Assembly (NCBI GenBank): GCA_963699965.1
Contig: CAVOVX010000007.1
Coordinates: forward strand, 14 to 64,013
From: an uncultured Chloroflexia bacterium
GTDB lineage: Bacteria; Chloroflexota; Limnocylindria; Limnocylindrales; CSP1-4
DNA length: 64,000 bases
Reading direction: 5' to 3'
In this document: piece by piece, positions 9,074 to 42,203 of the stretch
Layout: every line of letters starts with the position of its first letter
How positions within the stretch are numbered: position 1 is the stretch's first letter
The notes under the pieces: model-generated
The model's database searches: none
Told to the model about the DNA's origin: nothing
The model's input: the letters and a program-made list of their open reading frames with translations, nothing else
Made by a program: the position numbers and the translations under genes

Positions 9074-10089
9074 ATGGCATCCCGGATCGGCCTGGCGATC
9101 ATTGGCGCCGGGCGGATGGGTCGCAACCACGCTCGGTTGATCGCGGCCGGCGTGCCCGAGCTGTCGATCGTCGCGATCGGCGACGTCGACGGCGCCGCAG
9201 CCGACCGTCTGGCCGACGAGATCGGGAGCGCGACGGGCTTCGCCGACCCGCTCGCCGCGATCGCGGCGCCGGGCGTCGACGCCGTGCTCATCGCAGTCTC
9301 TTCCGACCAGCATCGGCACGTCGTGGAGGCCGCCGCGGCCGCGGGCCGGGACATCCTGTGCGAGAAGCCGCTGGCGCTGACCTCGCGGGCACGGAGCGCG
9401 ATCGCGGCCGCGGAGCGGGCCGGGGTCCGCCTCCAGGTGGGGCTCATGCGGCGCTGGGACCCGGACTACGTCCGGGCGCGTGCCCGGATCGCGGCCGGCG
9501 ACCTCGGACGGCTGTTGCTCTTCACGCCGCTGCAGTACGACAGGGACCCTCCACCGCTCGCGATCCTCGACCCGGCGGTAGCGGCGGGATCATGCTCGAC
9601 ATGGGCATCCACGAGTTCGACCTAGCTCGGTTGCTGATGGGCGCCGAGGTCGTCGAGGTCCAGGCAACCGGCTCGATCGTCCAGGCCCCGAGACCGCCGC
9701 GTTCGGGGACGTCGACACCGCCGTGGTGAGCCTCCGGTTCGCCTCGGGCGCGATCGGGACCGTCGAGATGAGCCGCGGCGACGACGTACGGCGAGGACGT
9801 CCGGACGGAGGTCCACGGCACCGACGGGAGCGCGTTCATCGGCGGCCTGCCGATCGCTGGCGGGTCGGCGATCGGCCGGGAGGGCGGTATCAGCTGGGAT
9901 GCGACGTCGCCGTCGATGCCGCGCTTCGCCCCGGCTTACATCGACCAGGCACGCGCCTTCGGCCGGTCGATCCAGAACGATGAGCCGGTAAGCCCCTCCG
10001 GCGCCGATGGCCGCGCAGCCTTCGTCATCGCGATGGCTGCCTCGCGCGCCCTGCAGGAGGCGGGGACCGTGGCCGTTGACGTGGTGTAG
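9074..10089 (+). pseudogene. Gfo/Idh/MocA family oxidoreductase (inositol dehydrogenase-like), at least 4 frame breaks
   Basis: GGAGGA RBS then ATG 9074. MASRIGLAIIGAGRMGRNHARLIAAG...DAVLIAVSSDQHRHVVEAAAAAGRDILCEKPLALT / GGIMLDMGIHEFDLARLLMG / VVSLRFASGAIGTVEMSR / YGEDVRTEVHGTDGSAFIGG...ADGRAAFVIAMAASRALQEAGTVAVDVV, stop TAG at 10087. Confidence 0.7.
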
Positions 10090-10100
10090 CATCTCGTAGT

Positions 10101-10114
10101 TGCAAACGGTTGCA
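10101..10114. promoter_or_regulatory. LacI-type operator site A: TGCAAACGGTTGCA
   Basis: Fits the TGnAAnCGnTTnCA pattern exactly. It lies 25 nt upstream of the P450 GTG (10140), with GGAGGG at 10128-10133. Confidence 0.65.
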
Positions 10115-10139
10115 CGATCCACGACCGGAGGGCCACAGT

Positions 10140-11333
10140 GTGGCAACTCTCGATTCGCTGATGTCACCGGAGGCGCCGGTCCGGTGGGACCCGCTCCGGG
10201 TGGTCGACGATCCGTATCCGACCTATCGCCGGCTTCGCAACGAAGCACCCCTTTATCGGGACGAGGAGCGAGCGATCTGGGCTCTATCCCGCTTCGACGA
10301 CGTCCAGGCCGCGGCGCGGGACTGGAAGACGTTCTCGAGCAGCGAAGGCAACGATCACGACGACGGACACCAGCTGTTCGAGCCGGCGGGTGACGTCGCC
10401 GGGATCGATCCGCCCGACCACACGCGCTTACGCAAGGCCCTTCACAGTGCCTTCAGCCCGTCGGAGATCAGAGCCAGGTTCGAGCCGTCGGCTCGCCTCA
10501 AGGCGAGGAGCCTGATCGACGCGTTCGCCGATCTCGGCCGGGCCGATCTGGCGCGTGACCTGGCCAGGCCGCTCCCCGGCGCGATGGTCTGCACGTGGCT
10601 CGGCTTCCCGGAGGACGACCATCCGCAGCTGCTGGACTGGTTCGGGCACTTGCTCGACCGCGTGCCCGGCGAGCATGGGCTGCCGGCGTCCGCACTCGAA
10701 GCCCGAGACCGGATGCGCGCCTACGTCGAGGCAGCGGCGGCTGAGCGTCGGGTCGCGCCCCGCGCCGATCTGTTGACGGTGCTCGTCCAGGCCCAAGCCG
10801 ACGGCGCCATCAGCGGGGATGAAGTGCTCGGCTGCTCGCTGCTCCTCTTCCTGGCTGGCATCACGACCACATCTGGGCTGATCTCGAATTCGCTCCTTCA
10901 CCTCGACCGATTCCCCGACCAGCGCGAGCTCATGCGTCTCGAACCGGAGCGCATTCCGGCCGCGATCGAGGAGCTCCTTCGCTTCGAGGCGCCAATCCAG
11001 ACCCTGATCCGGACGACCTCGAAGGAGGTCGAGATGCATGGGACGATCATTCCCAGGGGTGCCCACGTGAGCCTCATCTGGGCGTCAGCGAACCGCGACG
11101 AGCGACGCTGGACGGATCCGGATCGGCTCGACATCGGGCGTGCGCCGGAGCGGCACGTCGCCTTCGGCGAAGGGATCCACCACTGCATCGGAGCGCCGCT
11201 CGCGCGCCTCGAGGCCCGGATCGCCTTCGAGGAGCTGTTCGCGCGGATCCCGACGTATGCCGTCACTGGACCGATCAGACGGGTCAGCACACCGACCGAT
11301 CGCGCCCTGGAGAGCCTGCCCGTGGAGTTCTGA
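10140..11333 (+). CDS. Cytochrome P450 (intact)
   Basis: Heme-binding loop FGEGIHHCIGAPLARLE, ExxR in EELLRFEAP, I-helix-like LLLFLAGITTTSG, N-terminal YPTYRRLRNEAPLYRDEE. The start is taken as the GTG 6 nt after GGAGGG. Confidence 0.9.
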   Translation: MATLDSLMSPEAPVRWDPLRVVDDPYPTYRRLRNEAPLYRDEERAIWALSRFDDVQAAARDWKTFSSSEGNDHDDGHQLFEPAGDVAGIDPPDHTRLRKALHSAFSPSEIRARFEPSARLKARSLIDAFADLGRADLARDLARPLPGAMVCTWLGFPEDDHPQLLDWFGHLLDRVPGEHGLPASALEARDRMRAYVEAAAAERRVAPRADLLTVLVQAQADGAISGDEVLGCSLLLFLAGITTTSGLISNSLLHLDRFPDQRELMRLEPERIPAAIEELLRFEAPIQTLIRTTSKEVEMHGTIIPRGAHVSLIWASANRDERRWTDPDRLDIGRAPERHVAFGEGIHHCIGAPLARLEARIAFEELFARIPTYAVTGPIRRVSTPTDRALESLPVEF

Positions 11334-11349: not shown

Positions 11350-12216
11350 TCAGGCGGTCGTCGACGCGCCTTCCAGGAGCCCTCGGATCTGCTCGAACAT
11401 GAAGCGCGACGACTCCACGGCGCGCTCTTCCCAGGCGAAGACACAGCTCGTCAGGATCCCATCGAAGCCGACTCGCCGGAGCGCGTCGAAGCAGGCCACG
11501 AAGTCCACCTCGCCCTGGCCGATGTCGAGGTGCTGGTGGACGCGGGCCGGCGATCCGGGCGGGTTCACGATGTAGCGGTTGCCCGACGACGCCCGGTGGT
11601 TGAGCACGTCGGCGACGTGGACCTGGGTCAGGACGGGTGCGGCATAGTCGATCATCGCCCCGATGTCGTCGCCCAGGTAATAGGTGTGCGGCGCACAGAA
11701 CACGTAGCCGACGATCGGTGAGTCGATCCCTCGGACCAGGTCGACCGCCTCGGTGTTGCGCTCGATGAAGTCGTCCGGATGGGCCTCCAGGTTCAGCCGG
11801 ATCCCTTCCCGCTCGAAGATCGGCAGCAGCTCGTCCATCGAGCGCCAGAACTGCGCCTCGCTCCGGGCGGCCTGCTCCGGGCGACCGTTGAACTCGGAGT
11901 TCATGACCCCGCAGCCGACGTCGGCGGCGAGCTGGATCGCCCGCTTCCAGTAGCCGACGGCGGCCAGCCGCTCGTCTTCGTCCGGGCTCGACCAGCGGTA
12001 GAGGGGCAGGATCGACGCCAGCTCCATCCCCGTGTCGCGGAGCGCCGCCCGGAACTCCGCGACCTTGGCCCGATCCGCGCGCGGGTGCGTGAAGAACGGG
12101 ATGAAGTCAGGTCGTGGCGAGAGCTCGATCGAGTCGTAGCCGATGTCGGCTGCGATCCGACAGACCTCGGCGAACGGACGGTCGCGGAGCATGTACGGAT
12201 CGAGGGCGATCTTCAC
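11350..12216 (-). CDS. Sugar phosphate isomerase/epimerase (xylose isomerase-like TIM barrel), intact
   Basis: 288-aa ORF with IGYDSIELSP, MNSEFNGRP, RLNLEAHPDDF and HVHVADV..HLDIGQGEVDF. The start lies 2 nt downstream of the stop of the upstream large gene. Confidence 0.85.
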   Translation of the reverse strand: MKIALDPYMLRDRPFAEVCRIAADIGYDSIELSPRPDFIPFFTHPRADRAKVAEFRAALRDTGMELASILPLYRWSSPDEDERLAAVGYWKRAIQLAADVGCGVMNSEFNGRPEQAARSEAQFWRSMDELLPIFEREGIRLNLEAHPDDFIERNTEAVDLVRGIDSPIVGYVFCAPHTYYLGDDIGAMIDYAAPVLTQVHVADVLNHRASSGNRYIVNPPGSPARVHQHLDIGQGEVDFVACFDALRRVGFDGILTSCVFAWEERAVESSRFMFEQIRGLLEGASTTA

Positions 12217-12217
12217 G

Positions 12218-14823
12218 TCACGAGCTCTCCCGTTTGGCCGTACCGATCCGCCTGCGGAGGTCGGCTCCGCTCGCCGCGATCCGGTCCACCATCCGGGTCC
12301 GCTGAGCCGGGTCCGCGATGGTGGCCATGGAGTCCAGCCATCGTACGGTGCCGTCGATGACCGCGAGGATCGCCTCGGCGTCCGACGTGACGCACAGCGG
12401 CCGGTCGACGACCTCCACGTAGACCGGCGACGTATGGGCGGCCATGCTCGTGTTGTAGGCCGACCGGATCTCGTAGTCGCTGCGCGACCTGGCCGCGATC
12501 CAGGACCCCGCCGCGATGGAGATCTCGGCGGCGAGCTGGAGGTCGTCCGTCGCCCGGTCGACCGTTCGCTCGGCCACGACGCGACCGTTCACGACGAGCT
12601 CGACGGACCGGATGATCGATTGGGCCGCTCGAGCCCGGGCGTGCACGGTGAGCCGGCCGCCGCCCGCGGGCAGGACCAGGACGTCGCCGGGTTCGTGCCC
12701 ATCGACCGACAGCGCCAGCATCGGACCGGAGGTCGCAAACGTCCGTCCGGCACGAACCGCCGCGGACCAGGCGGCGAACGTCGCCGCCGCGTCGGGATCG
12801 AGCCGGGCGTAGGTCCGGATGGCGCCGACCGGCATCTCGGCCGACATCTTGTCGGTCCCACCCAGGACCGGCACCCGGTAGCCGCAATTGAGGAAGCGGT
12901 ACCACTCGCTGATCGACGGGTTGTCGAGGCCAGGAGCGAACGTCTGCATCTCGACGGCGTCGATCCGGCCGGCCACGATCTCGGCAGCGATCTCGGCGAA
13001 CGGCAACGGGAAGTGCGCCCCGACGACGAGGCCGCCCTCGGCGTGGCAGCGGTCCGCCCAGTCGCCGAGCAGCTCGGTGACGGCTCCCCCGATCCGGCCC
13101 TCGGGCCCGCCGCCCGAGGCGAGCGGAACGGTGGGCCGGCGCGCTCCGAGCAGGGCGAGATGGCCGAGCACGTTCTGGCGGTTCTCGGTCCCGACGATGA
13201 CGATGTGACGACCGTCGGGATCGGCCTGTGAGCCCCAGGCGAGGTCGGTGACGTTGGTGAACTCGTCGCCCAGCTGGGTCGCCAGCAGGTGGACGAACAC
13301 GACGTCCTCGGCGGCCGCCTGGAGGAGCGCCGTCGAGGGGGCCAGGAAGTGGACATGGGAGTCCGCGGAGCGCCAGCCGTCCGGCCGCAGATCGATCGCT
13401 CGCTCGAGCGCGACCGTGACGTCACGAGTCCCCGGCTCGACGACCAGCGTGCGACGCACAGGGCGGTGATCGAACCCCTTCACGACCTCGATCGCCACCT
13501 CGCCCAGCGGCAGGTCGATCGAGAACGCGCCGGGCACGTACGCGTAGGTGTCACCTCCGAGGATCAACCCGGCGCCAGAGTCCTCCAGGAGCCCCGGATT
13601 GATCTCCTCGCGGTGACCGAGCGGCGGCAGGTAGCGCCCGTCCGCGGCCACGAACCGCACCCGGGACGGCGTTGGCGCGTCGTCGGCCAGGATCCGGACG
13701 TCGACCCGGACCTCGGGCGTCGGCAGCGGACGGATCGTGATCCCGCCGTCCGGGCTCGTCGTCCGGGAGCCGAGCCCGGCGACCGCGACCTCCCAGTCGC
13801 CGAACGTCAGCCGCGCGTCGGGCGCTGCAGCGACGTCGAGGACTGTTCGCGCTGATCCGCCAGCTCGATTGGAGCCGTCGCGGGTGAGTGGCTCCGCGGA
13901 TCCCCAGCCGACCGGTCCACGGTCCGGGCCGTCGTCCGACCCGCGCGGCAGCGGGAGCGGTCGGGCCCCGATGGCGACCCCCAGGTCCACCTCGGGCAGG
14001 CCGTCTGCCGGGCCTTCGACCAGGAGCTGCCGGCGTGGCTCCAGGACGAGCGGGTCCGCGGTGCCCGCGAAGAGGGTCAGCGCCGCAAGGACGACCGCCG
14101 TGCCCGGACGGCCTCCGCCGAGCGGCACGAGACGCAGCTCGACCGGATCGCCATCGCCCAGCGGGATGGCGTGGAGCCAGTAGGTCGCGTCGTCGTCCGC
14201 GGTCGGGACGAAGTCGGCGATGCCCACCTGGGCAGCGCCCCACGAGCCGGGCAGCATCGCGAGCAGCCCGGCCTGGCCGGCGGCGACGCGGCGGCCCGGT
14301 TCCTGCCGTGGATGTGGGCCACGCCAGTCGAGCGTCTCGTCCGCCCGGTGACCGATCGCCGCGAACGGGATGAACCCCCAGCCGATGATCCCGTCTGCGA
14401 TCTCGAATTGACGGCGGATCTCGACGGCTCGGGTCGTGCCATCGGCGAACGTGATCGCGTACCGGGCGAGCCGCTCGCCGGTCGGCAGGACCCAGCCCAC
14501 GGGTGTTTCGGACGCTCGCTTCCCCGCGGCATCGCGCCAGCTGTCCGCGAAGTGGGCCACCACGAGGTGGCTGGCTCGGCCCTGACCCCGGAGGTCGATC
14601 GTCAGCTCGTCATCGAGGAGCAGCCAGCGCCGTCCCGCAGCCCGTCGTCCGAGCTCGAACGGGAGGCCCCGGAACACGACGGGGCCGTCGGGCAGCCGCG
14701 CCAGGGCGGACCGGTACGCGGATCGAGCCGTTCGCCCAATTCGGCATCGGACGCGTTCCACGCCGCCGACAGGTCCACCGGACGCGCCAGAGGCGTCGCG
14801 ATGCGGCCTCGCCCGATGGCCAT
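12218..14823 (-). CDS. Large (about 868 aa) uncharacterised protein, paralog 1. N-terminal half unknown; C-terminal metal-dependent hydrolase-like domain. One frame break near 14720.
   Basis: ATG 14823 (MAIGRGRIATPLARPVDLSAAWNASDAEL), then the 898-aa ORF frame. Motifs ADSHVHF, GTENRQNVLGHLALLG, VVGAHFPLP and GGTDKMS give an HxH...H...H...D pattern. About 50-70% identical to the gene at 27013-29588. Confidence 0.7.
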
Positions 14824-14879: not shown

Positions 14880-14893
14880 TGCAATCGGTTGCG
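14880..14893. promoter_or_regulatory. LacI-type operator site B: TGCAATCGGTTGCG, in the 83-bp divergent region
   Basis: 13 nt upstream of the iolD ATG (14907, RBS AAGGAGGG) and 56 nt upstream of the divergent large gene (14823). Overlaps the palindromic octamer TTGCGCAA (14889-14896). Confidence 0.65.
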
Positions 14894-14906: not shown

Positions 14907-16797
14907 ATGGACACCGTCCGGCTGACCGTGGGTCAGGCCATCGTCCGCTTCATGGCCAACCAGTACGCCGAACGAGACGGCCGCGAACAGCGCTTCATCG
15001 CCGGGGTCTGGGGCATCTTCGGGCACGGCAACGTCGCCGGCTTCGGCCAGGCCCTCGAGGAGCTCGGGGACGCCGAGGACATGCCCTACTACCGGCCCCA
15101 GAACGAGCAGGCCCAGGTCCATCTGGCGGCCGCGTTCGCGCGGCACAACAACCGCCTCCGGACATACGCCTGCACCTCGTCCGTCGGCCCGGGCGCGATG
15201 AACATGATCACCGGGGCTGCCGGCGGCGACCGTCAACCGGATCCCGGTGCTGCTCCTGCCGAGCGACTACTTCGCCAACCGGACGCCGGATCCCGTCCTC
15301 CAGCAGATCGAGCATCCGACCGAGCGCGACTTCGAGCGCCAACGACGCGTTCCGCCCGGTCTCCCGGTTCTTCGATCGGATCTCGCGTCCCGAGCAGCTG
15401 ATCGCCTCGCTGCCGGCGGCGTTTCGCGTGCTCACCGATCCGGCCGACACCGGGGCGGTCACGATCTCGCTGCCCGAGGACGTCCAGTCCGAGGCGTTCG
15501 ACTGGCCCGAGCGGTTCTTCGAGCGGCGGGTCTGGCGAGTTCGCCGACCGTTGCCTGAAGCGGCCGACGTGGCCGACGCGGTTCGCCTGATCCGGGCGTC
15601 GACGGCACCGGTGATCGTCGTCGGCGGGGGCGTGATCTACTCCGAGGCGACCGAGGCGCTGTCGGCGTTGGCGACGCAGTTCGGGATCCCGGTGGTCGAG
15701 ACGCAGGCTGGCAAGGGCGCCCTGCCCTGGAACCATCCAATGAATGCCGGCCCGGCGGGGACCAACGGCGGTCTGGCCGCCAACCGGCTCGCCCGCGACG
15801 CGGACCTGGTCATCTGCGTCGGGACGCGGATGGGCGACTTCGTGACCGCCTCACGCACGACGTTCCAGCACCCCGAGGCGAGGTTCATCGGCATCAACAT
15901 CGCGCCGATGGACGCCCACAAGCTGCGCGCGGTCCCGGTCGTGGCCGATGCCCGCGAGGCCCTGCGCGCGCTCGAGCGTGAGCTGGCGGCCGCCGGCTAC
16001 GCGGGGACCGCCGAACCGTATCGGCGGCGCGTCGCGGGGCTCAAGATGGAGTGGGACGACATCGTCACCAGCCTGCGAACGCGTGGATGGCGCTCCGGGC
16101 GATCTCGGCCAGGCCGAGGTCATCGGGATCGTGAACGACGTCGTGGGCGGTCACGCGACCGTGATCTGCGCCGCGGGCAGCCTGCCTGGTGACCTGCTCC
16201 GGCTGTGGCGACCCGAGGACCCCAAGGCCTACCACGTCGAATACGGCTTCTCGTGCATGGGCTACGAGATCGTGGCCGGGCTGGGCGTCCGGCTGGCCGA
16301 CCCGGATCGCGAGGTCGTCGTGATGGTCGGCGATGGCTCGTACCTGATGTTGAACTCCGAGATCGTCACCGCGGTCGCCGAGGGCCTCAAGCTCACGATC
16401 GTGGTCCTCGACAACCACGGGTTCCAGTGCATCCTCGCGCTCCAGCGGCTGGTCGGCGTGCCGGACTTCGGCAACGAGCTCCGCTTCCGCGACCGGTCGC
16501 GCAACCGGCTGACGGGCCCATACGTCCCGATCGACTTTCGGAAGCACGCCGAGGCGATGGGGGCCCTGGCGCCTCCAGGCGAACACGGCCGACGAGCTGC
16601 GCGCGGCGCTCGCCACGGCGCGCGCCGCCGATCGGATCGCGGTGATCGCGGTGCCCACCGAGCCGGAGAAGCGCGTCCCCGGCTTCGAATCGTGGTGGGA
16701 CGTCCCGGTGGCCGGTGCGAGCGAACAGGCCTCCGTCCGCGGCGCCCGGACGGCCTATGACGAGAAACGCCGCGAGCAGCGGACGGACATCCAGTAG
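14907..16797 (+). pseudogene. iolD: 3D-(3,5/4)-trihydroxycyclohexane-1,2-dione acylhydrolase IolD (ThDP enzyme), at least 4 frame breaks
   Basis: MDTVRLTVGQAIVRFMANQY...GIFGHGNVAGFGQALEE / [28 protein letters not shown] / [19 protein letters not shown]...VIVVGGGVIYS...ETQAGKGALPWNHP / GYEIVAGLGV..VVVMVGDGSYLMLNSEIVTA...LDNHGF / ...EKRVPGFESWWDVPVA, stop TAG at 16795. Confidence 0.85.
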
Positions 16798-33138: not shown

Positions 33139-33965
33139 ATGCCGGTCAGCCCGTACGCGCGGCTGACGCGCGGCCTGCTCGCGGTCCTGGCCGGCGCGAT
33201 CCTGGCGTTCCTCTACCTGCCGATCGCGTTCCTCATCCTGTTCTCGTTCGAGAAGGCGGACACGCCGGGCTTCCCGATCACCGGCCTGACCCTGCACTGG
33301 TACGAGGTGATGCTCGCCGACAGCGCCGATCCACTCGGCGCTGCTCAACTCGGTGCGCGGTGGCGATCGTCGTGGCGATCCTGGCGACGGTCATCGGGAC
33401 GATGGCCGCGTTCGCCGCTCGTGCGCGGCGGCATCCGCTTCGCCGGCACCGGCCCGGCTCGCTGTTCACCCTGCCGATCATGATCCCGGGCGTGCTGCAT
33501 CGGGATCGGCCTGCTGATCTTCTTCCGACGCGCGCTGGGGCTCCCGCTCGGGCTGCACACGGTCGTCGCCGGCCACCTCGTGTTCACGACGCCGTTCGTC
33601 GTGCTCATCGTGGCGGCCCGGCTGCAGGGCTTCGACCGACGCCTCGAGTGGGCGGCCGCCGACCTCGGGGCGAGACCGGGCCAGACCCTCCGCCACATCG
33701 TCCTGCCGCTCATCGCGCCGGCGATCATCGCCGGCGCGCTGCTCAGCGTGACCCTCTCGATCGACGAGTTCGTCATCACCTTCTTCACGATCGGGCCGCA
33801 GCTGACCCTGCCGCATCTACATCTACACGCAGATCAAGTTCGGGGTCACCCCCGAGGTCAACGCGGTGGCGACGGTCATCCTCGTCGCCACGCTCGGCGG
33901 CGTTCGCCATCGGCACGCTCCTGCTGAGCGGCGGGCGTCGCTTCCGCCGACAAGGGTCGGGATGA
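33139..33965 (+). pseudogene. ABC transporter permease (PotC-like), at least 4 frame breaks
   Basis: LAVLAGAILAFLYLPIAFLILFSFEKADTPGFPITGLTLHWYEVML / LNSVRVAIVVAILATVIGTMAAFA / FTLPIMIPGV / VVAGHLVFTTPFVVLIVAARLQGFDRRLEWAAADLGARPGQTLRHIVLPLIAPAIIAGALLSVTLSIDEFVITFFTIGP. Confidence 0.65.
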
Positions 33966-35052: not shown

Positions 35053-35081
35053 TGGCCGTGTCGAACTGGAGGTCCTGACCG

Positions 35082-36107: not shown

Positions 36108-37033
36108 ATGCCCCCGCCCTGCGGGTCGCCAGCGCCCCGGTCTCATTCGGTGTCGACGAGATCATGTTGGACGACGCCTGGATGCCGGCCCCGGACGACA
36201 TGCTCGACTGGATGGTCGACATCGGGTTCGAGGGCACCGAGCTCGGCACTCCCGGTTACCTCGGCGACGCGAGGCAGGTCAACGAGCGCCTGTCGTCGCG
36301 CGGCCTGGAGTTCGTCGGTTCGTTCATGCCCCAGCACTTCAGCCGCGCGGAGAAGGCCGACGAGGATCGCGCCTGGCTGCGCGACAACCTCCGCCTGATG
36401 AAGGAGGGCTCGCCGGCCGGCTCGCGGCCGTTCGCGATCCTGTCCGACCAGTTCGACGAACCCGACCGCCGGGCCTTCTCGGGGCGGATCCCGGACCATC
36501 CCGAGACGTGGCTGTCCGCGACTCGGTTCGACACGCTCATCGACAATCTCCACCGGGCGGCCGAGATCTGCCGGGCCGAGGGGCTCGAGCCGGTTCTCCA
36601 TCCCCACGCCGGGACCTACGTTGAGACGGCGGACGAGATCGCCCGGGTCATGGACCGGATCGACCCGTCGCTCATCGGCCTCTGCCTCGACACCGGCCAC
36701 TTCCGGTTCGGTGGCGCCGATCCGGCCACCTCCGTCCATGATTACCACGAGCTCGTTCGGCACGTCCACATCAAGGACTGTCGGACCTCGGTCATGGATG
36801 ACGTCAAGCGAGAGGGCAAGGGTCTCGACGAGGCGCTCCGCCGAGGCGTGTTCTGTCCCTTGGGCGAGGGCGACGCCGGGATTGACGCCGTCATCGAGGC
36901 GCTGCGAGCGCACGACTACACGGGCTGGCTCGTGATCGAGCAGGACCAGGCCCTTCGATCGTCGGATACGCCCCAATCGGTCATCGCCGGGCAGCGAGGC
37001 AATCGCGAGTACCTGCGCCGGCTCGGGATCTGA
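36108..37033 (+). CDS. Xylose isomerase-like TIM-barrel protein, IolE (inosose dehydratase)-like; one frame break directly after the ATG
   Basis: GGAGGAA RBS then ATG 36108, then LRVASAPVSFGVDEIMLDDAWMP...GFEGTELGTPGY...LHPHAGTYVET..GLCLDTGHFRFGG..HVHIKDC..GWLVIEQD. Confidence 0.7.
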
Positions 37034-37097: not shown

Positions 37098-38477
37098 TCA
37101 GAGCACGTCCCGATACTCCTGGAGGAACGACGCCGTGGCCTCGACCAACTGGTCGACGTCGTCCTCGGTATGGGCACCGGTCAGGAACCCCCGGATCATG
37201 TAGTGCGGGTGGACGTAGATCCCCCGCTCGAGGAGCCAGTCCCGGTAGCCGCGCTGGACGGGGTGGTTCTTGTCCATCGCGAACCGGGCGAAGTCCCGGA
37301 AGCGTCGGATCGGCTCGTCGGTGAAGTAGATCGTCCAGACCCCGGCGATCGCGCGGACCTGTGCCCGCGCGCCGGTCTCATCGATGGCGGCCTGGATGCC
37401 CGAGGTCAGCCGATCACCGAGCCGGGCCAGGTGCTCGTGGATCGTTCCCTCGAGCACGATCCGCGTCACTTCGAGCGCGACCGCACAGTTCAGCACCTGG
37501 CCGGCGAACGTCCCGGCGAACAGGACGTCGCCCTTGGGGCCGAGGTGGTCCATGACGTCGGCTCGGCCGGCGAGCACCGAGATCGGGAAGCCGTTGCCGA
37601 TGGCCTTGCCCATCGTCGTGAGATCGGGCGTCACCCCATACCGGCCCTGAGCTCCGCCGGGACCGTGGCGGAAGCCGGTGATGACCTCATCGAAGATGAG
37701 GAGCGAGCCGGACGCCGTGCACGCCTCGCGCAGCGTCTCGAGGAAGCCAGGCTCGGGCATGACCGCACCGGCGTTGTGGAAGACGGGCTCCAGGATGACC
37801 GCCGCGATCGTCTCGCCGTCCTCGGCGAGAAGCTCCCGGACACCGGCCGAATCGTTGTACTCGCGGACCTCGACGAGGTCCCGGATGGCAGCCGGGATCC
37901 CGGCCGACGCGGCGATCGGCGTGGGTACCCCGCCGCCCTCGTCCGTCGCGAAGTGATGGCTCCACGCCACGTAGTCGTGCCAGCCGTGGTAGTTGCCCTC
38001 GAATTTCAGGATCCGTTCCCGCCCGGTGAAGCCGCGGGCCAGGCGGATCGCGTGGTAGGTCGCCTCGGTGCCCGTGCAGCTGAACACCACCCGCTCCGCG
38101 GACGGGATCATCGCGATGAGCCGCTCGGCAAGCTCCACCTCGAGCGGATTGGCCGTCGAGAACGACACGCCGTGCTCGTCCATCGCCCGGCGAACGGCGG
38201 CATTGATCCGCGCGTCGTTGTGCCCCAGCAGGACCGCCCCAAACGACGAGTGGAAGTCGATGAACTCGTTGCCGTCGACATCCCAGATCCGCGACCCCTG
38301 GGCACGGGTCATGAACAGGGGATAGGGGCTCGCGCTCCGTCCTTCGCCCTGGACGCCGCCAGGTGACACGGCAGTCGCCCGGGCAAAGAGCTTCTCGGAC
38401 TCCGTCGTCGTGACGGGCCAGCCCGACGCCGCCGGTCGGGTGGCCGCTCCACTTCGGGTCGGGTCGACGGTCGTCAC
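37098..38477 (-). CDS. Class III (aspartate aminotransferase superfamily, GSA-aminomutase-like) PLP aminotransferase, intact
   Basis: 459-aa ORF with GSRIWDVDGNEFIDFHSSFGAVLLGH, VVFSCTGTEATYHAIRLAR, ILEPVFHNAG, LLIFDEVITGFRHG and DLTTMGKAIGNGFP (PLP lysine). Confidence 0.85.
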   Translation of the reverse strand: MTTVDPTRSGAATRPAASGWPVTTTESEKLFARATAVSPGGVQGEGRSASPYPLFMTRAQGSRIWDVDGNEFIDFHSSFGAVLLGHNDARINAAVRRAMDEHGVSFSTANPLEVELAERLIAMIPSAERVVFSCTGTEATYHAIRLARGFTGRERILKFEGNYHGWHDYVAWSHHFATDEGGGVPTPIAASAGIPAAIRDLVEVREYNDSAGVRELLAEDGETIAAVILEPVFHNAGAVMPEPGFLETLREACTASGSLLIFDEVITGFRHGPGGAQGRYGVTPDLTTMGKAIGNGFPISVLAGRADVMDHLGPKGDVLFAGTFAGQVLNCAVALEVTRIVLEGTIHEHLARLGDRLTSGIQAAIDETGARAQVRAIAGVWTIYFTDEPIRRFRDFARFAMDKNHPVQRGYRDWLLERGIYVHPHYMIRGFLTGAHTEDDVDQLVEATASFLQEYRDVL

Positions 38478-38497: not shown

Positions 38498-39688
38498 TCA
38501 GAGCCCGGCGGGCAGCACGACTGCCGTGCGGGTGCCGCTCGCTGCCGCCTCGTACAGCGCGTCGAGGACGGCGCTGTCACGAACGCCATCCGAGAAGTCG
38601 GCGGAGCCCGGCCGGCCGCCCGCGATGGCGTCGACGAACTCGGCCCACATTGCGCACTCCTGGCCGAGCCAGCCGATCGACGTTCCATCGGTGCCGGCGA
38701 TGAGCAGCTCAGGCGCGCCCGGGTGGGCGGGGTTCACGAGGACCCGCCGGAAGCCGAACGTGAACGGGTCGCCGGGCAGGCAGACCCGGAACTCATCCGG
38801 TCGCTCGAGGTCCCAGTCCGCGGATCCGCGCGAGCCGAACACCTCGAGCTGGAGCGAGATCCGCTTGCCGATCGCGACGCGGCTCGCCTCGAGCACCCCA
38901 TAGGCGCCGCTCTCGAAGGTCACGAGCGCCGCCGCCGCGTCCTCGACGTCGACCGGTCCGGTCTCGCCCCGGCCCGATCGGGCGGCGTCGCCGCCGCGGT
39001 TGCCGACCGCATCGGCGCCGGGGAGCGGTCGCTCGGCGATGAACGTCGCCGCCAATGCCTGCACGGTCACGATCTCCCCGACCAGGAATCGGGCGCAATC
39101 GACGAGGTGATACCCGGTGTCGATCGCGATCCCGCCACCGGCGAACCGCTTCTGGAATCGCCACAGGAGCGGAACGTCTGGATCGGCGGCGTAGTCGAGC
39201 ATGAAGGCTGCCCGGATGCTGCGGATCGTTCCGAGCTCGCCCTCGCGGATGAGCCGCTCGATGGCGCGGACGGCGGGCGACCAGCGATAGCCCGCCCCGA
39301 GGCCGTGGAACACCCGCGCCGCTCGACAGGCACGAAGCATCAGGGCGGCGTCCTCGGCCGACTCGGCCATCGGCTTCTCACACACGATGTGCTTCCCGGC
39401 GGCGGCGGCGGCGAGCACGATGTCGCGGTTCAGGGCGGGCGGCAGGCAGACGACGACGAGATCGATATCGGCCGCGGCGATGACCGCATCGGCGTCGTCG
39501 GCGACCCGCTCGTAGCCGAAACGATCGGCCAGGCTGGTCGCGAGGCCCCGGTTCACGTCGGCCACCGCGACGAGGCGCGGTCGACGTGGGAGCTGCCGGT
39601 AGAGGGCCGCGAGGTTTGCCAGGGCCGCGCTGTGCGCACCGGCCATCGTGCCGGCCCCGATCATCCCGATCCGCAGCTCGTCGGTCAT
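38498..39688 (-). CDS. Gfo/Idh/MocA family oxidoreductase, intact
   Basis: 396-aa ORF with LRIGMIGAGTMAGAHSAAL, DLVVVCLPPALNRDIVLAAAAAGKHIVCEKPMA and GGIAIDTGYHLVDCARFLVG. Confidence 0.85.
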   Translation of the reverse strand: MTDELRIGMIGAGTMAGAHSAALANLAALYRQLPRRPRLVAVADVNRGLATSLADRFGYERVADDADAVIAAADIDLVVVCLPPALNRDIVLAAAAAGKHIVCEKPMAESAEDAALMLRACRAARVFHGLGAGYRWSPAVRAIERLIREGELGTIRSIRAAFMLDYAADPDVPLLWRFQKRFAGGGIAIDTGYHLVDCARFLVGEIVTVQALAATFIAERPLPGADAVGNRGGDAARSGRGETGPVDVEDAAAALVTFESGAYGVLEASRVAIGKRISLQLEVFGSRGSADWDLERPDEFRVCLPGDPFTFGFRRVLVNPAHPGAPELLIAGTDGTSIGWLGQECAMWAEFVDAIAGGRPGSADFSDGVRDSAVLDALYEAAASGTRTAVVLPAGL

Positions 39689-39806: not shown

Positions 39807-40733
39807 TCAGGCGATCAGGGGCCGGATGAAGGCGGCGGCCTCCTCGACGCCTTCCACCGCGGGCTGATACGGATCCTCGTTCTCGATCGAGAGCGGGCCG
39901 TCGTAGCCCACCGACCGAAGAGCGGCGATGAACGAAGACCACCACGTTCGGTCATGGATGCGACCGACGGTTCGGAAGACCCACGCCCGATCGCGAGCGT
40001 CGCCAAACGCCGTCGTATCGAGCACGCCCGCCAGCGCCAGGCGATCGGGCTGCAGGCCGGTGTCCTTGAGGTGGACGTGCTGGATGGCCGTCCCGAGGGC
40101 CGCGATCGCGGCCAGCGGGTCCATCTGCTGCCAGAACAGGTGCGACGGGTCCATGTTCGCGCCGATGACCGGGCCGACGGCCTCGCGCATCCGACGCAGG
40201 GTCGGGACGTTGAACACGAGGTGGAGGGGATGGAGCTCGAAGGCGATCTGCTTGACCCCGCACGCGGTGGCGTGGGCCGCCATGTCCTGCCAGAAGGGGA
40301 TCGCCGCGTCCCACTGGCGGGCCTGGAGGGCGACGGCGTCGGCGGGCCAGGGGTAGAACACCCAGTCGACCGTGGTGGCACCCGGTCCGTCACCGGGCGT
40401 GCCGGACATCGAGACGACCGTTTCGACGCCGAGCTCACCGGCTAGCCGGATCGTGTCCCGGATGATCCGCTCCTGGGCGGGCCCGTGGGCCGGATGGAGC
40501 GGCCAGGCGGAGCAGTTGAGGGCCGCGATGCGCAGCCCGCGGGTCGCGAATGCACTGGCGAACGCCGTCCGCTTGCCCCGGTCGCCCAGGAGCACTCCGA
40601 GCTCGAGGTGGGGCGCCGAGGACTGGCCACCGCCGGCGATCTCGATCGAGCCGCAGCCGATCCGCGCCGCGAGGTCGAGGGCGGCCTCGAACGACAGCTC
40701 GGCCACCGAGTCCGTGTACAGGCACAGGTCCAA
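39807..40733 (-). CDS. Sugar phosphate isomerase/epimerase (xylose isomerase-like TIM barrel), intact
   Basis: 308-aa ORF with GCGSIEIAGGG, IAFELHPLHLV, GANMDPSHLFWQ, HVHLKD and GYDGPLSIENED. Confidence 0.85.
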   Translation of the reverse strand: MDLCLYTDSVAELSFEAALDLAARIGCGSIEIAGGGQSSAPHLELGVLLGDRGKRTAFASAFATRGLRIAALNCSAWPLHPAHGPAQERIIRDTIRLAGELGVETVVSMSGTPGDGPGATTVDWVFYPWPADAVALQARQWDAAIPFWQDMAAHATACGVKQIAFELHPLHLVFNVPTLRRMREAVGPVIGANMDPSHLFWQQMDPLAAIAALGTAIQHVHLKDTGLQPDRLALAGVLDTTAFGDARDRAWVFRTVGRIHDRTWWSSFIAALRSVGYDGPLSIENEDPYQPAVEGVEEAAAFIRPLIA

Positions 40734-40804
40734 GGCATGACTCCGTCTACGGGGCGCTGGCCGACCCGACGCGCGGCCCGTTCAGCCGGGGCAGCGCTCG
40801 GGCA

Positions 40805-41905
40805 TCAGGACCGGAGGTCCGGGTTGGGCAGGACGGCGTCGCCGACCTGGTGGAGGAGCTCGTGGTACGAGGCGATGAAGGCCCGGAGCGTGCGGACGGT
40901 CGGCGGGAATCCGTCGAACTCGTCGACAGTCAGTCCATCCGGTTCATAGGCCCGCACGAAGTCGGGAAAGTGGCGGGCCAGCTCGCCGACGATCGCCGGG
41001 TCGACCGGTTCGTCCATGCGCGGGCGAACCTCCACGTCGGAGGCGTTGAAGCGGCGTTGCCAGACGGACGGCAGGGTGACGATGACGTCGCCGCCGATGA
41101 GCTGGCTCCAGTGGTAGTGGTGGCGGATCGCAGCGCCGAGCAGCCGCGCCCGGAGGCCGCGCGTCCGGAAGATTTCGTACGCCCGCTTGAACACCGCGAC
41201 CCCCGACCAGGGCAGGGCGACCGGATCGACGACGATCCCGTCGCGCTCGGTCTGGACCCGGAGCCAGTCCTCGATCCGGCCCATCATGATCGTGATGACC
41301 GGACCCATCCGGTCCACCGGCAGGCCCTCGTTCTGGCGCCGCTGGAGGCCACGCTCGACGGCCTCGGCCGCCGCGACGGCCTGGCTGACGCTGAAGCTCA
41401 CGGTGCAGTTGACGCTCACCCCGCGATAGGTCGCCTCTTCCATGACCGCGATCCCGACCGAGGTCGCCGGGAACTTCACCACGATGTTCGGGGCGAGCCC
41501 GTCGAACCGGACGCCCTGGGCGAGCATCTGGTCGGGCGTTCGCCAGAAGGTCGGGTTCGTCTGGACCGACAATCGACCCTGGCGCCCCTCGAACCGATCG
41601 AATGCAGGGAGCAGGAGCGGAGCGGCCCGGACCGACATCGCCTCCACGATCGCCCAGGCCAGATCGACTTCGGTCCACCCGGGATGCTCCGTCGCCAGGC
41701 CCGCCGTCACGGCCCGCCAGTACGCCGGATCCGCCTTCCAGACGTCGTGGACGATCGTCGGATTGGCCGTCGCGCCGACCGCACCGTTCGCGATCGCGTA
41801 CTCCAGCTCGTCGACGGCGCACGAATCGTTCCAGATGTCCGTTGCGGTCTCGGCCACCGTTCGGGCTAACGGGCTGAGCGCGGTCGTGTCCACCTGGCTA
41901 CCCAT
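40805..41905 (-). CDS. tal: Transaldolase family protein, intact
   Basis: 366-aa ORF with DIWNDSC, GATANPTIV, GRLSVQTNP, NIVVKFPATSVGI (Schiff-base lysine context) and GVSVNCTVSFS. Confidence 0.8.
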   Translation of the reverse strand: MGSQVDTTALSPLARTVAETATDIWNDSCAVDELEYAIANGAVGATANPTIVHDVWKADPAYWRAVTAGLATEHPGWTEVDLAWAIVEAMSVRAAPLLLPAFDRFEGRQGRLSVQTNPTFWRTPDQMLAQGVRFDGLAPNIVVKFPATSVGIAVMEEATYRGVSVNCTVSFSVSQAVAAAEAVERGLQRRQNEGLPVDRMGPVITIMMGRIEDWLRVQTERDGIVVDPVALPWSGVAVFKRAYEIFRTRGLRARLLGAAIRHHYHWSQLIGGDVIVTLPSVWQRRFNASDVEVRPRMDEPVDPAIVGELARHFPDFVRAYEPDGLTVDEFDGFPPTVRTLRAFIASYHELLHQVGDAVLPNPDLRS

Positions 41906-42203
41906 CGACCGACACGAGAATCGGCCCGGCGTCGGTCTCCATCTCGATGTGCTGACGAACGCCTGCAGCCGCGAGCCAGTCGCGGAACCGTTCCGCCCCC
42001 GGCGTGCCCTGGTCGGCCAATTCCCATTCGGCGACGGCGATGGTCGTTCGCGGTCCCGCGCGCATCAGCCGATAGCGGACGAACCCGGGTTGCGCTCGGA
42101 ACACCGTGCTGCCGTCCCGGGCGATGAGCTCCACGAGGTCACGGCCCGCCTCGCTGTCCAGGTCGACATCCCAGGTCGCACGCGTCGTGCGCAGGTACCT
42201 CAT
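41898..42203 (-). CDS. Small ABM/Dabb-fold (antibiotic biosynthesis monooxygenase-like) protein; first gene of the minus-strand operon
   Basis: 101-aa ORF whose end overlaps the transaldolase start by 8 nt. GFVRYRLMRAGPRTTIAVAEWELADQ is reminiscent of the ABM fold; the assignment is weak. Confidence 0.45.
   Translation of the reverse strand: MRYLRTTRATWDVDLDSEAGRDLVELIARDGSTVFRAQPGFVRYRLMRAGPRTTIAVAEWELADQGTPGAERFRDWLAAAGVRQHIEMETDAGPILVSVDG

Follow-up and report, generated by a model that had tools for sequence, protein, structure and literature searches.

The window analysed here is a stretch of 64,000 nucleotides, and the locus lies between positions 9074 and 42203 of it. The DNA comes from a bacterium of the Chloroflexota (Limnocylindrales-type) and not from an actinomycete. 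Every gene family that an earlier note on this DNA had listed there was found with Pfam and NCBIfam profiles. The absences reported in the note also hold, and no aldehyde dehydrogenase (iolA), class II aldolase, GntR/RpiR regulator or RbsB-type binding protein was detected in any window ORF scanned. Several of the genes listed as whole, however, are conceptual read-throughs across frame breaks. The locus carries at least 24 single-base frame changes, densest at 25-36 kb, which hit IolD (four breaks), IolC, both IolG-like genes, the second IolB, both large paralogs, the whole transporter, the luciferase-like oxidoreductase and the Zn-dependent alcohol dehydrogenase. With so many breaks, it is not safe to treat this copy as working in its sequenced form, and if the breaks are real it may be non-functional.

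IolD (3D-(3,5/4)-trihydroxycyclohexane-1,2-dione hydrolase) is encoded at 14907..16797 on the plus strand. Its orthologue in L001, a relative with 94% identity, scored 897 bits on TIGR04377 (cut-off 715), and IolD of a more distant clade scored 829 bits, also above that equivalog cut-off. IolB (5-deoxy-glucuronate isomerase; 19026..19952, plus strand) reached 272 bits on TIGR04378, and a second IolB at about 26140..26940 (plus strand, at least two frame breaks) reached 222 bits; both copies, like IolD, exceed the curated NCBIfam equivalog cut-off, here 205. The IolC-like PfkB kinase (18066..19029, plus strand, one frame break at ~18800) scored 260 bits on TIGR04382 and so falls short of its equivalog cut-off of 300; the two IolG-like proteins and the most IolE-like barrel likewise stay below theirs. 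A DeoC/LacD-type class I aldolase at 20114..20947 on the plus strand (Pfam DeoC; PRK12858, 154 bits against a cut-off of 184) occupies the IolJ position.

Three dehydrogenases belong to the Gfo/Idh/MocA family by Pfam. Two are IolG-like and on the plus strand, at 9074..10086 (275 bits on TIGR04380 against 355, with frame breaks) and at 25088..26126 (336 bits against 355 after frame correction, one frame break). The third, at 38498..39688 on the minus strand, is levoglucosan-dehydrogenase-like (NF052479, 302 bits against 650). Four TIM barrels match Pfam AP_endonuc_2. TIM barrel 1 (11350..12216, minus strand, 172 bits) lies directly 3' of hydrolase A, with which it is probably co-translated, and has neither an equivalog nor a close PDB relative. 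TIM barrel 2 (20974..21816, plus strand) is the last gene of the iol operon and has no IolE profile match. TIM barrel 3 (36110..37033, plus strand) is the most IolE-like of the four, with 161 bits on TIGR04379 against a cut-off of 290, and its counterpart in the more distant clade scored 171 bits. An IolE-like gene is thus present as claimed earlier, although the best candidate is this sub-threshold barrel and not the one in the iol operon. TIM barrel 4 (39807..40733, minus strand) forms with the third dehydrogenase a pair that resembles the levoglucosan or 3-keto-glycoside dehydrogenase and TIM-barrel eliminase pairs. The Zn-dependent alcohol dehydrogenase (35070..36085, plus strand; ADH_N and ADH_zinc_N, two frame breaks) has IolM, scyllo-inosose 3-dehydrogenase, as its best NCBIfam match (194 bits against a cut-off of 450). 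The luciferase-like (F420-type) oxidoreductase at 34030..35030 (plus strand, Pfam Bac_luciferase, frame breaks) has F420-dependent subfamilies as its top NCBIfam matches, below cut-off.

Two aminotransferases are present. The DegT/DnrJ/EryC1-family gene (16811..18049, plus strand; Pfam, 270 bits) is intact, lies inside the iol operon, is 99% identical to that of L001 and keeps the Schiff-base catalytic lysine in the motif SFNEFK. The class-III enzyme at 37098..38477 on the minus strand (Pfam Aminotran_3, with PDB matches) belongs to the glutamate-1-semialdehyde aminomutase-like subfamily (PRK00062, 404 bits against 398). The two had been described as being of different fold types; they do differ in family, PF01041 and PF00202, but both are PLP fold type I. 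The closest solved relative of DegT is KdnA (264 bits), which aminates the terminal aldehyde of a sugar acid, whereas the scyllo-inosose and 2-deoxy-scyllo-inosose aminotransferases scored 128-158 bits. DegT could therefore act on a downstream aldehyde acid rather than on an inosose.

The two large paralogs, unknown to the earlier note, are both present and can now be narrowed to metallohydrolases with a CehA/McbA-type domain. Hydrolase A, cytoplasmic and ~868 aa long, is encoded at 12218..14823 (minus strand, one frame break near 14720), and hydrolase B at 27034..29353 (minus strand, four frame breaks). Paralog B is 56% identical over 755 aa to P0001, an orthologue of hydrolase A, and 78% identical to its own orthologue in L041. 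Residues 483-804 of P0001 match NF038032 with 149.6 bits (cut-off 80). No Pfam match and no PDB sequence match was found for the ~860-aa protein; its AF2 model has a pLDDT of 88, a fold search returned matches to isolated domains only, and no close relative of it has been characterised. The domain contains a D-x-H-x-H motif and invariant Glu, His and Asp residues, presumably a set comparable to the metal ligands in PHP-type enzymes, mostly phosphoesterases.

A PotABCD-type ABC importer is encoded at 29840..33900 on the plus strand, with many frame breaks, and was read from conceptual translations: the ATPase at 29840-30850, the SBP_bac_6 binding protein at 31060-32160 and two permeases at 32230-33900. 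Intact orthologues occur in L002 and L041, and the intact binding-protein orthologue carries a Tat/lipoprotein signal. The binding protein matches PotD best, with scores of 62 and 49-54 bits where the cut-off is 582. Although only distantly related to PotD, it keeps the main amine-contact residues: W34, E171, W255 and D257 are conserved, E36 is replaced by D and D168 by Q.

The transketolase is present as a family (Transketolase_N, Transket_pyr and Transketolase_C) but is not one gene as had been listed. The 620-aa ORF at 23209..25071 (plus strand) consists of TktN and, from about 24150, TktC, which a 1-nt insertion at 24073, seen by comparison with L001, has joined into one frame; L001 and L087 carry tktN and tktC as distinct genes. 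In L087 the genes iolD-tktN-tktC-iolB-degT-lacI-potA overlap and no kinase or aldolase lies within 10 kb, an arrangement found in seven species. A transaldolase/FSA-family protein (40805..41905, minus strand; TAL_FSA) has counterparts inside or adjoining the iolD operon in L014, L023, L016 and L036. The remaining genes are a cytochrome P450 at 10161..11333 (plus strand, Pfam p450, 94% identical to its L001 orthologue) and a 101-aa ORF at 41898..42203 (minus strand) that has no Pfam or NCBIfam match and is absent from every related locus; its membership in the system is doubtful.

A LacI-family repressor (22071..23153, plus strand; Pfam LacI and Peripla_BP_1/3) had been omitted from the earlier gene list. 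The 14-bp palindrome TGCAAyCGnTTGyA occurs in the promoter gaps as four core sites and a weaker fifth. All five belong to the locus, whereas chance alone would give 0.12 sites in the window. The weak copy (8999..9015), upstream of the first IolG-like gene, has 2 mismatches to the 17-mer TTGCGCAACCGATTGCA and 3 to the 14-bp core. The predicted operator TGCAACCGTTTGCA at 10101..10114, between the first IolG-like gene and the P450 gene, has no mismatch; an operator lies upstream of P450 in 6 related loci. In the divergent promoter gap of hydrolase A and iolD, the operator at 14880..14893, which matches the 17-mer exactly, overlaps a TTGCGC-N18-TATCAT promoter-like element, and this block is conserved across 31 aligned intergenic regions. 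The copy at 21864..21877 (1 mismatch) precedes the LacI gene, a position also occupied in L001, L031, L018 and L041, and predicts autoregulation. The last (29655..29668, minus strand, 0 mismatches) lies in the divergent gap of hydrolase B and the transporter operon, as in L041 and L009. A half operator is found at 39744, and the minus-strand block at 37.1-42.2 kb is without a full site in the window. Across 81 related loci the palindrome was found 107 times, against 0-3 in shuffles, with 106 copies in the 400 nt that precede cluster genes (58 for hydrolase A, 32 for IolD, 30 for LacI and 22 for DegT). We regard it as a putative LacI-type operator common to the operons of the locus, which would therefore form one regulon.

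Conservation around the large hydrolases was compared in 35 loci of a closer clade (identity >=60%, loci >=12 kb) and 18 loci of a more distant clade. IolD lies near the hydrolase in 32/35 and 14/18 of them, DegT in 34/35 and 13/18, and LacI in 30/35 and 18/18. TIM barrel 1 accompanies the hydrolase in 30 of the 35 closer loci at 76-93% identity, TIM barrel 4 in 16/35 and 8/18, and the Pot-type importer genes in 15-17 of the 18 more distant ones. The importer, LacI, dehydrogenase and TIM-barrel genes thus travel with the large hydrolase across related loci, and the conserved system comprises the Iol core, amine-removing enzymes, an amine-type importer and the two large hydrolases. Neighbourhood analysis of the paralogs and aminotransferases, the test proposed in the earlier note, therefore favours a single system in two Chloroflexota clades, and orthologous loci consistently lacking the iol genes were not what was found. 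Its suggestion that an amine-bearing or O-methylated cyclitol is degraded fares unevenly: the amine remains plausible, but O-demethylation is weakened as part of the pathway and is at most an accessory trait, because P450 lies near the hydrolase in just 6 of the 35 closer-clade loci.

Could the genes have come together by chance, so that the aminotransferase, P450, transporter and pentose-phosphate genes have nothing to do with the iol operon next to them? Gene order varies between species, and near the hydrolase in the closer clade P450 occurs in 6, the transaldolase in 4, the class-III aminotransferase in 3 and the 101-aa ORF in none of 35 loci. For the core set this is contradicted by conservation across two clades and by a shared operator far above chance and nearly confined to promoter gaps of cluster genes; start and stop codons also overlap in L087. 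Fortuitous adjacency is therefore extremely improbable. That the copy is decaying, with real frame breaks and a pathway being lost, would fit the density of breaks and the relative L002/L009, in which iolC, iolB, the aldolase gene and the TIM barrel are gone and just a 96-aa IolD remnant is left. But in each piece, once corrected for frame, third codon positions carry the bulk of the substitutions against the 94%-identical relative (7/12/77 by codon position in IolD, 23/21/111 in hydrolase A), which points to selection on the locus genes. The insertions are isolated single bases, genes that have no part in the locus are broken too (at 1-4.3 kb and 51.9-60.3 kb), and related long-read MAG contigs are broken similarly in different genes. 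The frame breaks are probably assembly errors, and decay is quite improbable.

The other readings concern the substrate and direction of the pathway. The hydrolases may be PHP-type phosphoesterases or otherwise cleave a cyclitol conjugate that is phosphorylated or glycosylated, such as inositol phosphate, a glycerophosphoinositol-type head group or glucosaminyl-inositol; any amine would then belong to the conjugated partner instead of the ring. Their putative metal ligands, the inclusion of sugar-phosphate binding proteins in the SBP_bac_6 family and the levoglucosan-type gene pair are in line with this. We nevertheless consider it unlikely, since PotD's key acidic and aromatic contacts are kept, both aminotransferases count within the conserved set (DegT 34/35, class-III 3/35) and no locus gene has a phosphatase-family or glycoside-hydrolase-family match among Pfam profiles. 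An ordinary inositol regulon for several isomers, with an amine-free substrate, would explain why the locus has two IolB genes and three dehydrogenases of IolG-like or LGDH-like type, much as multi-isomer inositol loci do. Its aminotransferases would replace the missing IolA by converting malonate semialdehyde or a 4-carbon transketolase product to beta-alanine-type amino acids; iolA is absent from every related locus examined as well, and KdnA acts on the terminal aldehyde of a sugar that bears a carboxyl group. However, iolA is frequently encoded apart from iol clusters (PMC9430895). An amino acid as catabolic end product would also waste carbon and nitrogen, the importer is polyamine-type and not sugar-type, and DegT of the more distant clade stays beside upper-pathway genes (IolD, a Gfo dehydrogenase and an IolE-like barrel), while no gene of the lower pathway is found up to 10 kb away. 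We judge this reading rather improbable. A biosynthetic cluster for an aminocyclitol or amino sugar (for instance for a cell-envelope component or solute), in which DegT and the dehydrogenases would work towards synthesis, would draw on the known toolkit of DegT-family, Gfo-family and Zn-ADH enzymes, and the PDB matches of DegT include 2-deoxy-scyllo-inosose aminotransferases. It is very improbable, given that ring-opening IolD, IolB, IolC and the aldolase are catabolic, that genes for an importer and for a LacI-type repressor are among the conserved ones, and that Pfam revealed no cyclase, glycosyltransferase or exporter among the locus genes.

The best reading, though unproven, is thus that an amine-bearing cyclitol is broken down by way of the Iol pathway. 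An amine-bearing substrate, as proposed earlier, is plausible from the DegT lysine, the position of DegT in the iol operon and the kept PotD residues, and such a cyclitol is probably the substrate; the likeness of DegT to KdnA counts against this. In the pathway that we propose, the Pot-type importer would take up a cationic cyclitol derivative via its lipoprotein binding protein, and one or both cytoplasmic metallohydrolases would free the (amino)cyclitol from a conjugate, which is the least certain step. DegT would replace the amine by a keto function and so yield an inosose; a second amine may be removed in the same way by the class-III aminotransferase, and the IolG-like dehydrogenases would give the inosose from hydroxyl-only cyclitols. 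A TIM-barrel dehydratase (IolE-like barrel 3, or barrel 1) would form the 1,2-dione, IolD would open the ring and IolB would isomerise the product to 5-dehydro-2-deoxy-gluconate. This would be cleaved classically by the IolC kinase and class I aldolase or, as a new alternative, by the split transketolase acting directly, an enzyme accompanied by an IolB copy of its own; the transaldolase may give a third cleavage route. P450 would be accessory for a subset of substrates, e.g. O-methylated ones.

We hold it about as likely as not that, as this scheme has it, the 9.0-42.2 kb region of this uncultured soil Chloroflexota (Limnocylindrales-type) works as one catabolic regulon under repressor control, with the inositol (Iol) pathway as its base. 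Transketolases need donors with a D-threo ketose configuration, which 5-dehydro-2-deoxy-D-gluconate offers. Relatives with the split transketolase in place of IolC and the aldolase suggest that this enzyme may constitute an undescribed lower branch of the Iol pathway, which we put forward as a new proposal.

Because the GC content of the window is about 70%, raw ORF lists were unusable. Genes were recovered with a frame-aware HMM on codon-position GC (7-state), hand-inspected translations and Pfam and NCBIfam profile searches, and later gene models were made by comparison with intact orthologues. A strict third-position GC filter and a greedy variant were dropped for gene calling, the locus having come out fragmented. 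Every gene family named in the earlier note was recovered within 9074-42203. The absences it had listed held as well: no Aldedh-family gene (iolA), class II aldolase, GntR/RpiR regulator or RbsB-type binding protein was detected in any ORF scanned across the window. A LacI-family regulator that it had not mentioned is encoded at 22071-23153 and contains LacI and Peripla_BP domains (Pfam). The boundaries it had drawn are reasonable, since the genes outside them are unrelated: an aldo/keto reductase, an LLM, a PNPOx-like protein, a glyoxalase-like protein and a tRNA-Arg upstream, and YdeI-like and AlkZ-like genes, an adenylate cyclase, cyclophilins and others downstream. The sole Rfam and ARAGORN matches in the window are tRNA-Arg(CCG) (5139-5214, minus strand) and tRNA-Asp(GTC) (53378-53454, plus strand). 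At 60861-62667 (plus strand), a gene for a short-chain dehydrogenase precedes another PfkB sugar kinase, with 30% identity to IolC; the pair has the look of a sugar-acid module in its own right.

Comparison with intact orthologues showed at least 24 frame changes within the locus. Alignment with the 94%-identical relative L001 located isolated 1-nt insertions at 15224, 15330, 16082, 16570, 18800 and 24073, among others. The IolD copy in the window carries four frame breaks. The 620-aa 'transketolase' ORF at 23209-25071 is an artefact in which the insertion at 24073 has joined the TktN and TktC genes; these are separate and overlapping in L001 and in another relative, L087. Substitutions between the window and L001 fall overwhelmingly at third codon positions in every frame-corrected piece (codon positions 1/2/3: IolD 7/12/77, hydrolase A 23/21/111, DegT 3/2/49). 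Frame shifts also hit genes outside the locus, at 1-4350, 51900-53300 and 58380-60350; among those broken at 1-4.3 kb are VOC- and SRPBCC-like fragments and a gene resembling a response regulator/thioredoxin reductase. As such genes are also broken, the indel problem is window-wide, which is typical of long-read assemblies. Related long-read MAG contigs contain breaks too, but in other genes. Third-position substitutions, isolated indels and breaks in unrelated genes and in related MAGs together indicate that the frame breaks are most likely assembly errors, and real, very recent decay of the locus is highly improbable. Without frame correction half of the pathway would read as pseudogenes or fused genes. 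Long-read MAG sequence of this sort has many single-base indels and calls for caution in gene calling.

The locus contains a core of inositol-pathway genes. IolD is a TPP-dependent ring-opening hydrolase, IolB a 5-deoxy-glucuronate isomerase, IolC a 5-dehydro-2-deoxygluconokinase, IolE an inosose dehydratase and IolG an inositol 2-dehydrogenase. An intact orthologue of the window IolD (94-97% identical) passed the TIGR04377 equivalog cut-off with 897 bits (cut-off 715), and both IolB copies passed TIGR04378 (first copy 272 and second copy 222 bits, cut-off 205). The other members stayed under their cut-offs. The IolC-like kinase had its best match in TIGR04382 (260 bits, cut-off 300), and frame-corrected translations of the two IolG-like genes had theirs in TIGR04380 (336 and 275 bits, cut-off 355). 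The IolE profile was the best match of TIM barrel 3 (36110-37033, plus strand), at 161 bits (cut-off 290), and gave no match to TIM barrels 1 (11350-12216, minus strand), 2 (20974-21816, plus strand) and 4 (39807-40733, minus strand). The best match of Gfo3 (38498-39688), one of three Gfo/Idh/MocA genes, was levoglucosan dehydrogenase (302 bits, cut-off 650). The aldolase is a DeoC/LacD class I enzyme in place of the class II IolJ.

The locus shares true IolD and IolB, IolC-, IolG- and IolE-like genes and predicted control by a repressor with the iol systems of Bacillus subtilis and Salmonella (IolG-E-D-B-C-J-A). It differs from them in having no IolA, class II IolJ or IolR, with a LacI protein and the class I aldolase instead; in a Pot-type rather than sugar-type importer; in a DegT gene inside the operon; and in two large metallohydrolases, a split transketolase and a transaldolase. 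The Zn-ADH recalls the IolM/IolN/IolO variant of Thermotoga maritima, its best profile match being IolM (scyllo-inosose 3-dehydrogenase; 194 bits, far under the cut-off of 450). TIM barrel 1 has a weak IolO match of 33 bits against a cut-off of 300, and, unlike in that variant, the IolD/IolB route is clearly present here. A published survey defined an iol cluster by at least three of iolB, C, D and E in one locus, with IolJ and IolA outside the core-gene set (PMC9430895). By this definition the locus counts as an Iol cluster, and it would work like one.

Synteny was analyzed with the large hydrolase as anchor in 80 species-level loci with 10-kb flanks, onto which 27 window proteins were mapped. 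The relatives of this protein are all from Chloroflexota, mostly 'Candidatus Limnocylindrales' and long-read soil MAGs, so that an actinomycete origin, as the 70% GC content might suggest, was rejected. In the closer clade (hydrolase identity of 60% or more, loci of 12 kb or longer, n=35; presence within 10 kb), IolD was found near the hydrolase in 32/35 loci, DegT in 34/35, and LacI and TIM barrel 1 each in 30/35, while IolC, IolB, the aldolase and TIM barrel 2 each occurred in 20-22/35. The more distant clade (hydrolase 45-59% identical) has LacI in 18/18, the four transporter genes in 15-17/18, IolD in 14/18 and DegT and Zn-ADH in 13/18 each. Its IolD passed the equivalog cut-off (829 bits against 715), and the adjoining TIM barrel is IolE-like (171 bits). 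The earlier note had reckoned that orthologous loci consistently without iol genes would indicate fortuitous adjacency. With iol genes accompanying the hydrolase in both clades, the adjacency is not fortuitous. One relative, with a hydrolase 79% identical (L002/L009), is the exception: iolC, iolB, the aldolase and the TIM-barrel genes are missing, and all that is left of IolD is a 96-aa remnant between DegT and hydrolase A (L002/L009 8399-10000). DegT, LacI and the two hydrolases are retained there, as are importer and operators. In the most distant clade (hydrolase about 39% identical; L068-L082 and L084, 8917-12499), the hydrolase keeps a single partner, a Gfo/Idh/MocA gene directly upstream, and the pair lies among housekeeping genes. 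This lone partner hints that what the hydrolase acts on may be such a dehydrogenase's substrate or its product.

The 31 aligned divergent iolD/hydrolase promoter gaps contain a near-invariant block, CTCCTTGCGCAACCGATTGCA..GAAGGTATCATCG. A LacI-type palindrome inside this block overlaps a promoter-like element, TTGCGC-N18-TATCAT, which fits repression by promoter occlusion. A conserved CGTCAA box follows the element at 14860-14910 and in the aligned gaps of 30 related loci. The predicted operator sequence for the LacI protein is TGCAACCGATTGCA. With up to 3 mismatches to the 17-mer, five sites were found in the window against 0.12 expected, a count reached by 0/100 shuffles. Four are core sites of the form TGCAAyCGnTTGyA, at 10101 (between Gfo1 and the P450), 14880 (hydrolase A/iolD gap), 21864 (upstream of lacI) and 29655 (hydrolase B/potA gap); the weaker fifth is at 8999, upstream of Gfo1 (9074-10086). 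The 14-bp core occurs 107 times in 81 related loci, against 0-3 in shuffles, and 106 of the 107 sites are at most 400 nt upstream of mapped cluster genes: hydrolase A (58), IolD (32), LacI (30), DegT (22), TIM barrel 3 (10), TIM barrel 4 (9), P450 (6), Gfo3 (4) and PotA (3). No sites were found in the clade with hydrolases about 39% identical. A LacI-type protein together with predicted operators, palindromes with a central CG in promoter regions, is what a LacI regulon should show. Since promoter gaps across the locus share this operator, direct sequence evidence makes both of its halves one predicted regulon. The only weakly linked part in the window is the block of minus-strand genes between 37.1 and 42.2 kb, which comprises the class-III aminotransferase, Gfo3, TIM barrel 4 and the transaldolase and has just a half site, at 39744. 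It is syntenic with the core in six related loci (L016, L036, L047-L049 and L057) and operator-linked in L021 and L035.

Hydrolase A (12218-14823, minus strand) and hydrolase B (27034-29353, minus strand) are 56% identical to each other. They belong to a family of about 830-870 aa that is seen almost exclusively in Chloroflexota; of the candidates that a single search scored, 2,463 were relatives at E ≤0.001. There was no Pfam match even at E ≤10, no PDB sequence match in a profile search with E up to 1, and no signal peptide. The NCBIfam CehA/McbA domain NF038032 matched residues 483-804 of P0001, an intact hydrolase A orthologue, with 149.6 bits, above the cut-off of 80. The invariant residues D488-x-H490-x-H492, E547, H555, H604, D658 and H797 (P0001 numbering) are consistent with a predicted multi-metal hydrolase. 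An AF2 model from 69 diverse sequences (pLDDT 88; an earlier model from 16 close sequences was poor, pLDDT 56.6) has about 480 residues of beta-rich N-terminal domains, an alpha/beta catalytic domain, a beta-sandwich and a helical C-terminal tail. Foldseek searches of the PDB gave no whole-protein analogue and no match to the catalytic domain in the top 50. Isolated domains matched AziU3/U2 (7wuw) and Ig-like or GH2 beta-sandwiches. AziU3/U2, from azinomycin biosynthesis, was the best structural match of the P0001 model (E 2.4e-5, TM 0.62 on target), at 14% identity and over part of the non-catalytic region. The proteins have a metallohydrolase domain of about 315 residues in common with the CehA/McbA carbaryl (carbamate) hydrolases. 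They differ from these in being cytoplasmic, about 860 aa long and encoded among cyclitol genes, and they are not expected to act on pesticides. No gene has the operator in front of it more often than hydrolase A, which lies directly upstream of TIM barrel 1, one base apart; from this context, it probably acts at the entry of the pathway.

The four PotABCD-type components of the importer, an ABC_tran protein with TOBE_2, an SBP_bac_6 protein and two BPD_transp_1 proteins, were identified in intact orthologues; the importer genes of the window are conceptual translations. The binding protein is a Tat-signal lipoprotein in the intact orthologue. Intact copies of its gene occur in L041 (7419-8372, minus strand) and L002 (401 aa). 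It is not a PotD or PotF equivalent (PotD profile 62 bits against 582, PotF 28 against 636) and gave about 49-54 bits against PotD structures. The importer is thus no PotABCD orthologue, and its binding protein is not an ordinary PotD. In the alignment with PotD, W34, E171, W255 and D257 are kept, E36 is replaced by D and D168 by Q. E171, W255 and D257 weigh most in spermidine binding by PotD. With these main contact residues kept, an amine ligand is plausible on sequence grounds. About 13 kb downstream of the locus, at 55303-56433 (minus strand), there is a gene of the PIG-L/LmbE family (GlcNAc-PI de-N-acetylase family), which takes in the GlcNAc-inositol deacetylase MshB and the mycothiol amidase Mca; it could be relevant to a glucosaminyl-inositol substrate.

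The two aminotransferases, DegT (16811-18049, plus strand) and the class-III enzyme (37098-38477, minus strand), had been assigned to different fold types. Both are of PLP fold type I, and it is their families that differ. The class-III enzyme falls in the glutamate-semialdehyde-aminomutase-like subfamily. DegT carries the Schiff-base lysine motif SFNEFK, and it is therefore a predicted transaminase; a role as a ColD/E1-type dehydratase replacing IolE was ruled out by this catalytic lysine. StsC and BtrS/BtrR, glutamine:scyllo-inosose and 2-deoxy-scyllo-inosose aminotransferases that act on free inososes and not on nucleotide sugars, likewise belong to the DegT/DnrJ/EryC1 family with a catalytic lysine. 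DegT differs from them in the proposed direction, deamination, and in being nearer in sequence to KdnA (5k8b), its nearest solved relative (264 bits), than to the inosose aminotransferases (5w70, 7b0d and 2c7t; 128-158 bits). The homologue search with DegT gave only relatives of at least 80% identity, from the same clade. On plasmids, DegT has matches of about 41% identity; these are in a biosynthetic cluster unrelated to the locus and in an Embleya record that lacks annotation and has no iol genes nearby.

The resemblance to KdnA and the lack of iolA would suit an explanation in which the aminotransferases act on downstream aldehyde acids and the substrate bears no amine. In the more distant clade, DegT stays with IolD, a Gfo dehydrogenase and the IolE-like barrel, and no lower-pathway genes were found within 10 kb. 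This association argues that DegT acts on the ring, and action on the downstream aldehydes is unlikely. The O-demethylation that the earlier note had combined with deamination lost ground: it depends on the P450, which is near the hydrolase in only 6/35 loci of the closer clade.

The window transketolase sits with the second IolG-like gene (Gfo2, 25088-26126) and the second IolB, behind lacI. In seven species, iolD-tktN-tktC-iolB-degT-lacI-potA form a tightly packed operon, with no kinase or aldolase within 10 kb; in L087, gene coordinates show overlapping start and stop codons. In four other loci (L016, L036, L050 and L053), the partner of the transaldolase is a divergent IolB/KduI-like gene, the third of its kind, with 37-40% identity to IolB. 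From this pairing, each putative cleavage module seems to bring its own isomerase. The product of IolB, 5-dehydro-2-deoxy-D-gluconate, has a CH2OH-CO-CHOH-CHOH head of D-threo configuration, as donors of transketolase and transaldolase need. Transketolase would convert 5-dehydro-2-deoxy-gluconate to xylulose-5-phosphate and 3-hydroxy-4-oxobutanoate, and transaldolase would convert it to fructose-6-phosphate and malonate semialdehyde; both cleavage routes would be free of ATP. A precedent exists in sulfo-TK and sulfo-TAL, in which cluster-borne TK/TAL enzymes cut a 6-substituted ketose without phosphorylation, and bifurcated use of TK and TAL is documented in these sulfoquinovose pathways (PMC9594981, PMC11659671). 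Those systems resemble the present one in being catabolic clusters with their own transketolase and/or transaldolase. They differ in the substrate, which here would be 5-dehydro-2-deoxy-gluconate from ring-opened inositol, and the sequences give no sign that the enzymes are orthologous to those of the sulfoquinovose pathways. No inositol branch of this type turned up in a literature search on transketolase with iolB.

The rhizopine (3-O-methyl-scyllo-inosamine) moc systems of Sinorhizobium and Rhizobium take up a decorated cyclitol, strip it and feed the Iol pathway. The Gfo/Idh/MocA (MocA) and TIM-barrel (MocC) families are both present here, a likeness at the family level. The Pfam matches of the locus include no MocB-type (RbsB-like) binding protein, MocDEF oxygenase/ferredoxin or MocR, and the sole Peripla_BP matches are those of the effector domain of the LacI regulator. 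Since MocB, MocDEF and MocR are all absent, the locus is no moc system; it also differs in having a P450 in some loci instead of MocDEF and in belonging to a different phylum.

In the proposed pathway, a cationic cyclitol derivative would be imported and the metallohydrolase(s) would release an (amino)cyclitol by hydrolysis. DegT would then deaminate it to an inosose, with the class-III enzyme serving for a second amine, or the IolG-like enzymes would oxidise it. A TIM-barrel enzyme would dehydrate the inosose, IolD would open the ring, IolB would isomerise the product, and the resulting ketose would be cleaved. By our own reasoning, oxidation of 2-deoxy-scyllo-inosose at the carbon beside the ketone should yield precisely the substrate of IolD, and deoxy-aminocyclitols could therefore bypass IolE. 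The best-supported reading is that an amine-bearing cyclitol is deaminated and fed into the Iol pathway by a system with no characterised counterpart, a reading to which we give about an even chance. A more far-reaching version is tentative and carries clearly less weight: an undescribed system in which a new hydrolase family opens a cationic cyclitol conjugate, DegT deaminates, and a kinase-free 'Iol-TK' branch with a split transketolase, in some species also a transaldolase, replaces IolC/IolJ. The locus joins to the textbook pathway a regulator and an operator that are new to it, a new family of hydrolases, an embedded aminotransferase and possibly a new cleavage branch, in a lineage for which soil and freshwater MAGs are almost the only source. 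No description of the system was found in the literature on aminocyclitol and inosamine catabolism, Limnocylindria with inositol, and 2-deoxystreptamine degradation.

The relatives of the window are soil and freshwater MAGs of Limnocylindrales-type Chloroflexota, which are abundant and uncultured, with substrate preferences largely unknown. The conserved regulon, with its predicted operator and no fewer than 20 genes, suggests that these bacteria use cyclitol derivatives, in all probability aminated ones, as a nutrient. It places a large uncharacterised metallohydrolase family in a defined metabolic context and suggests undescribed transketolase/transaldolase alternatives for the lower inositol pathway. 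If the undescribed system is real, an uncultured soil lineage that ranks among the most abundant would have both an enzyme family and a variant of a textbook pathway that are new.
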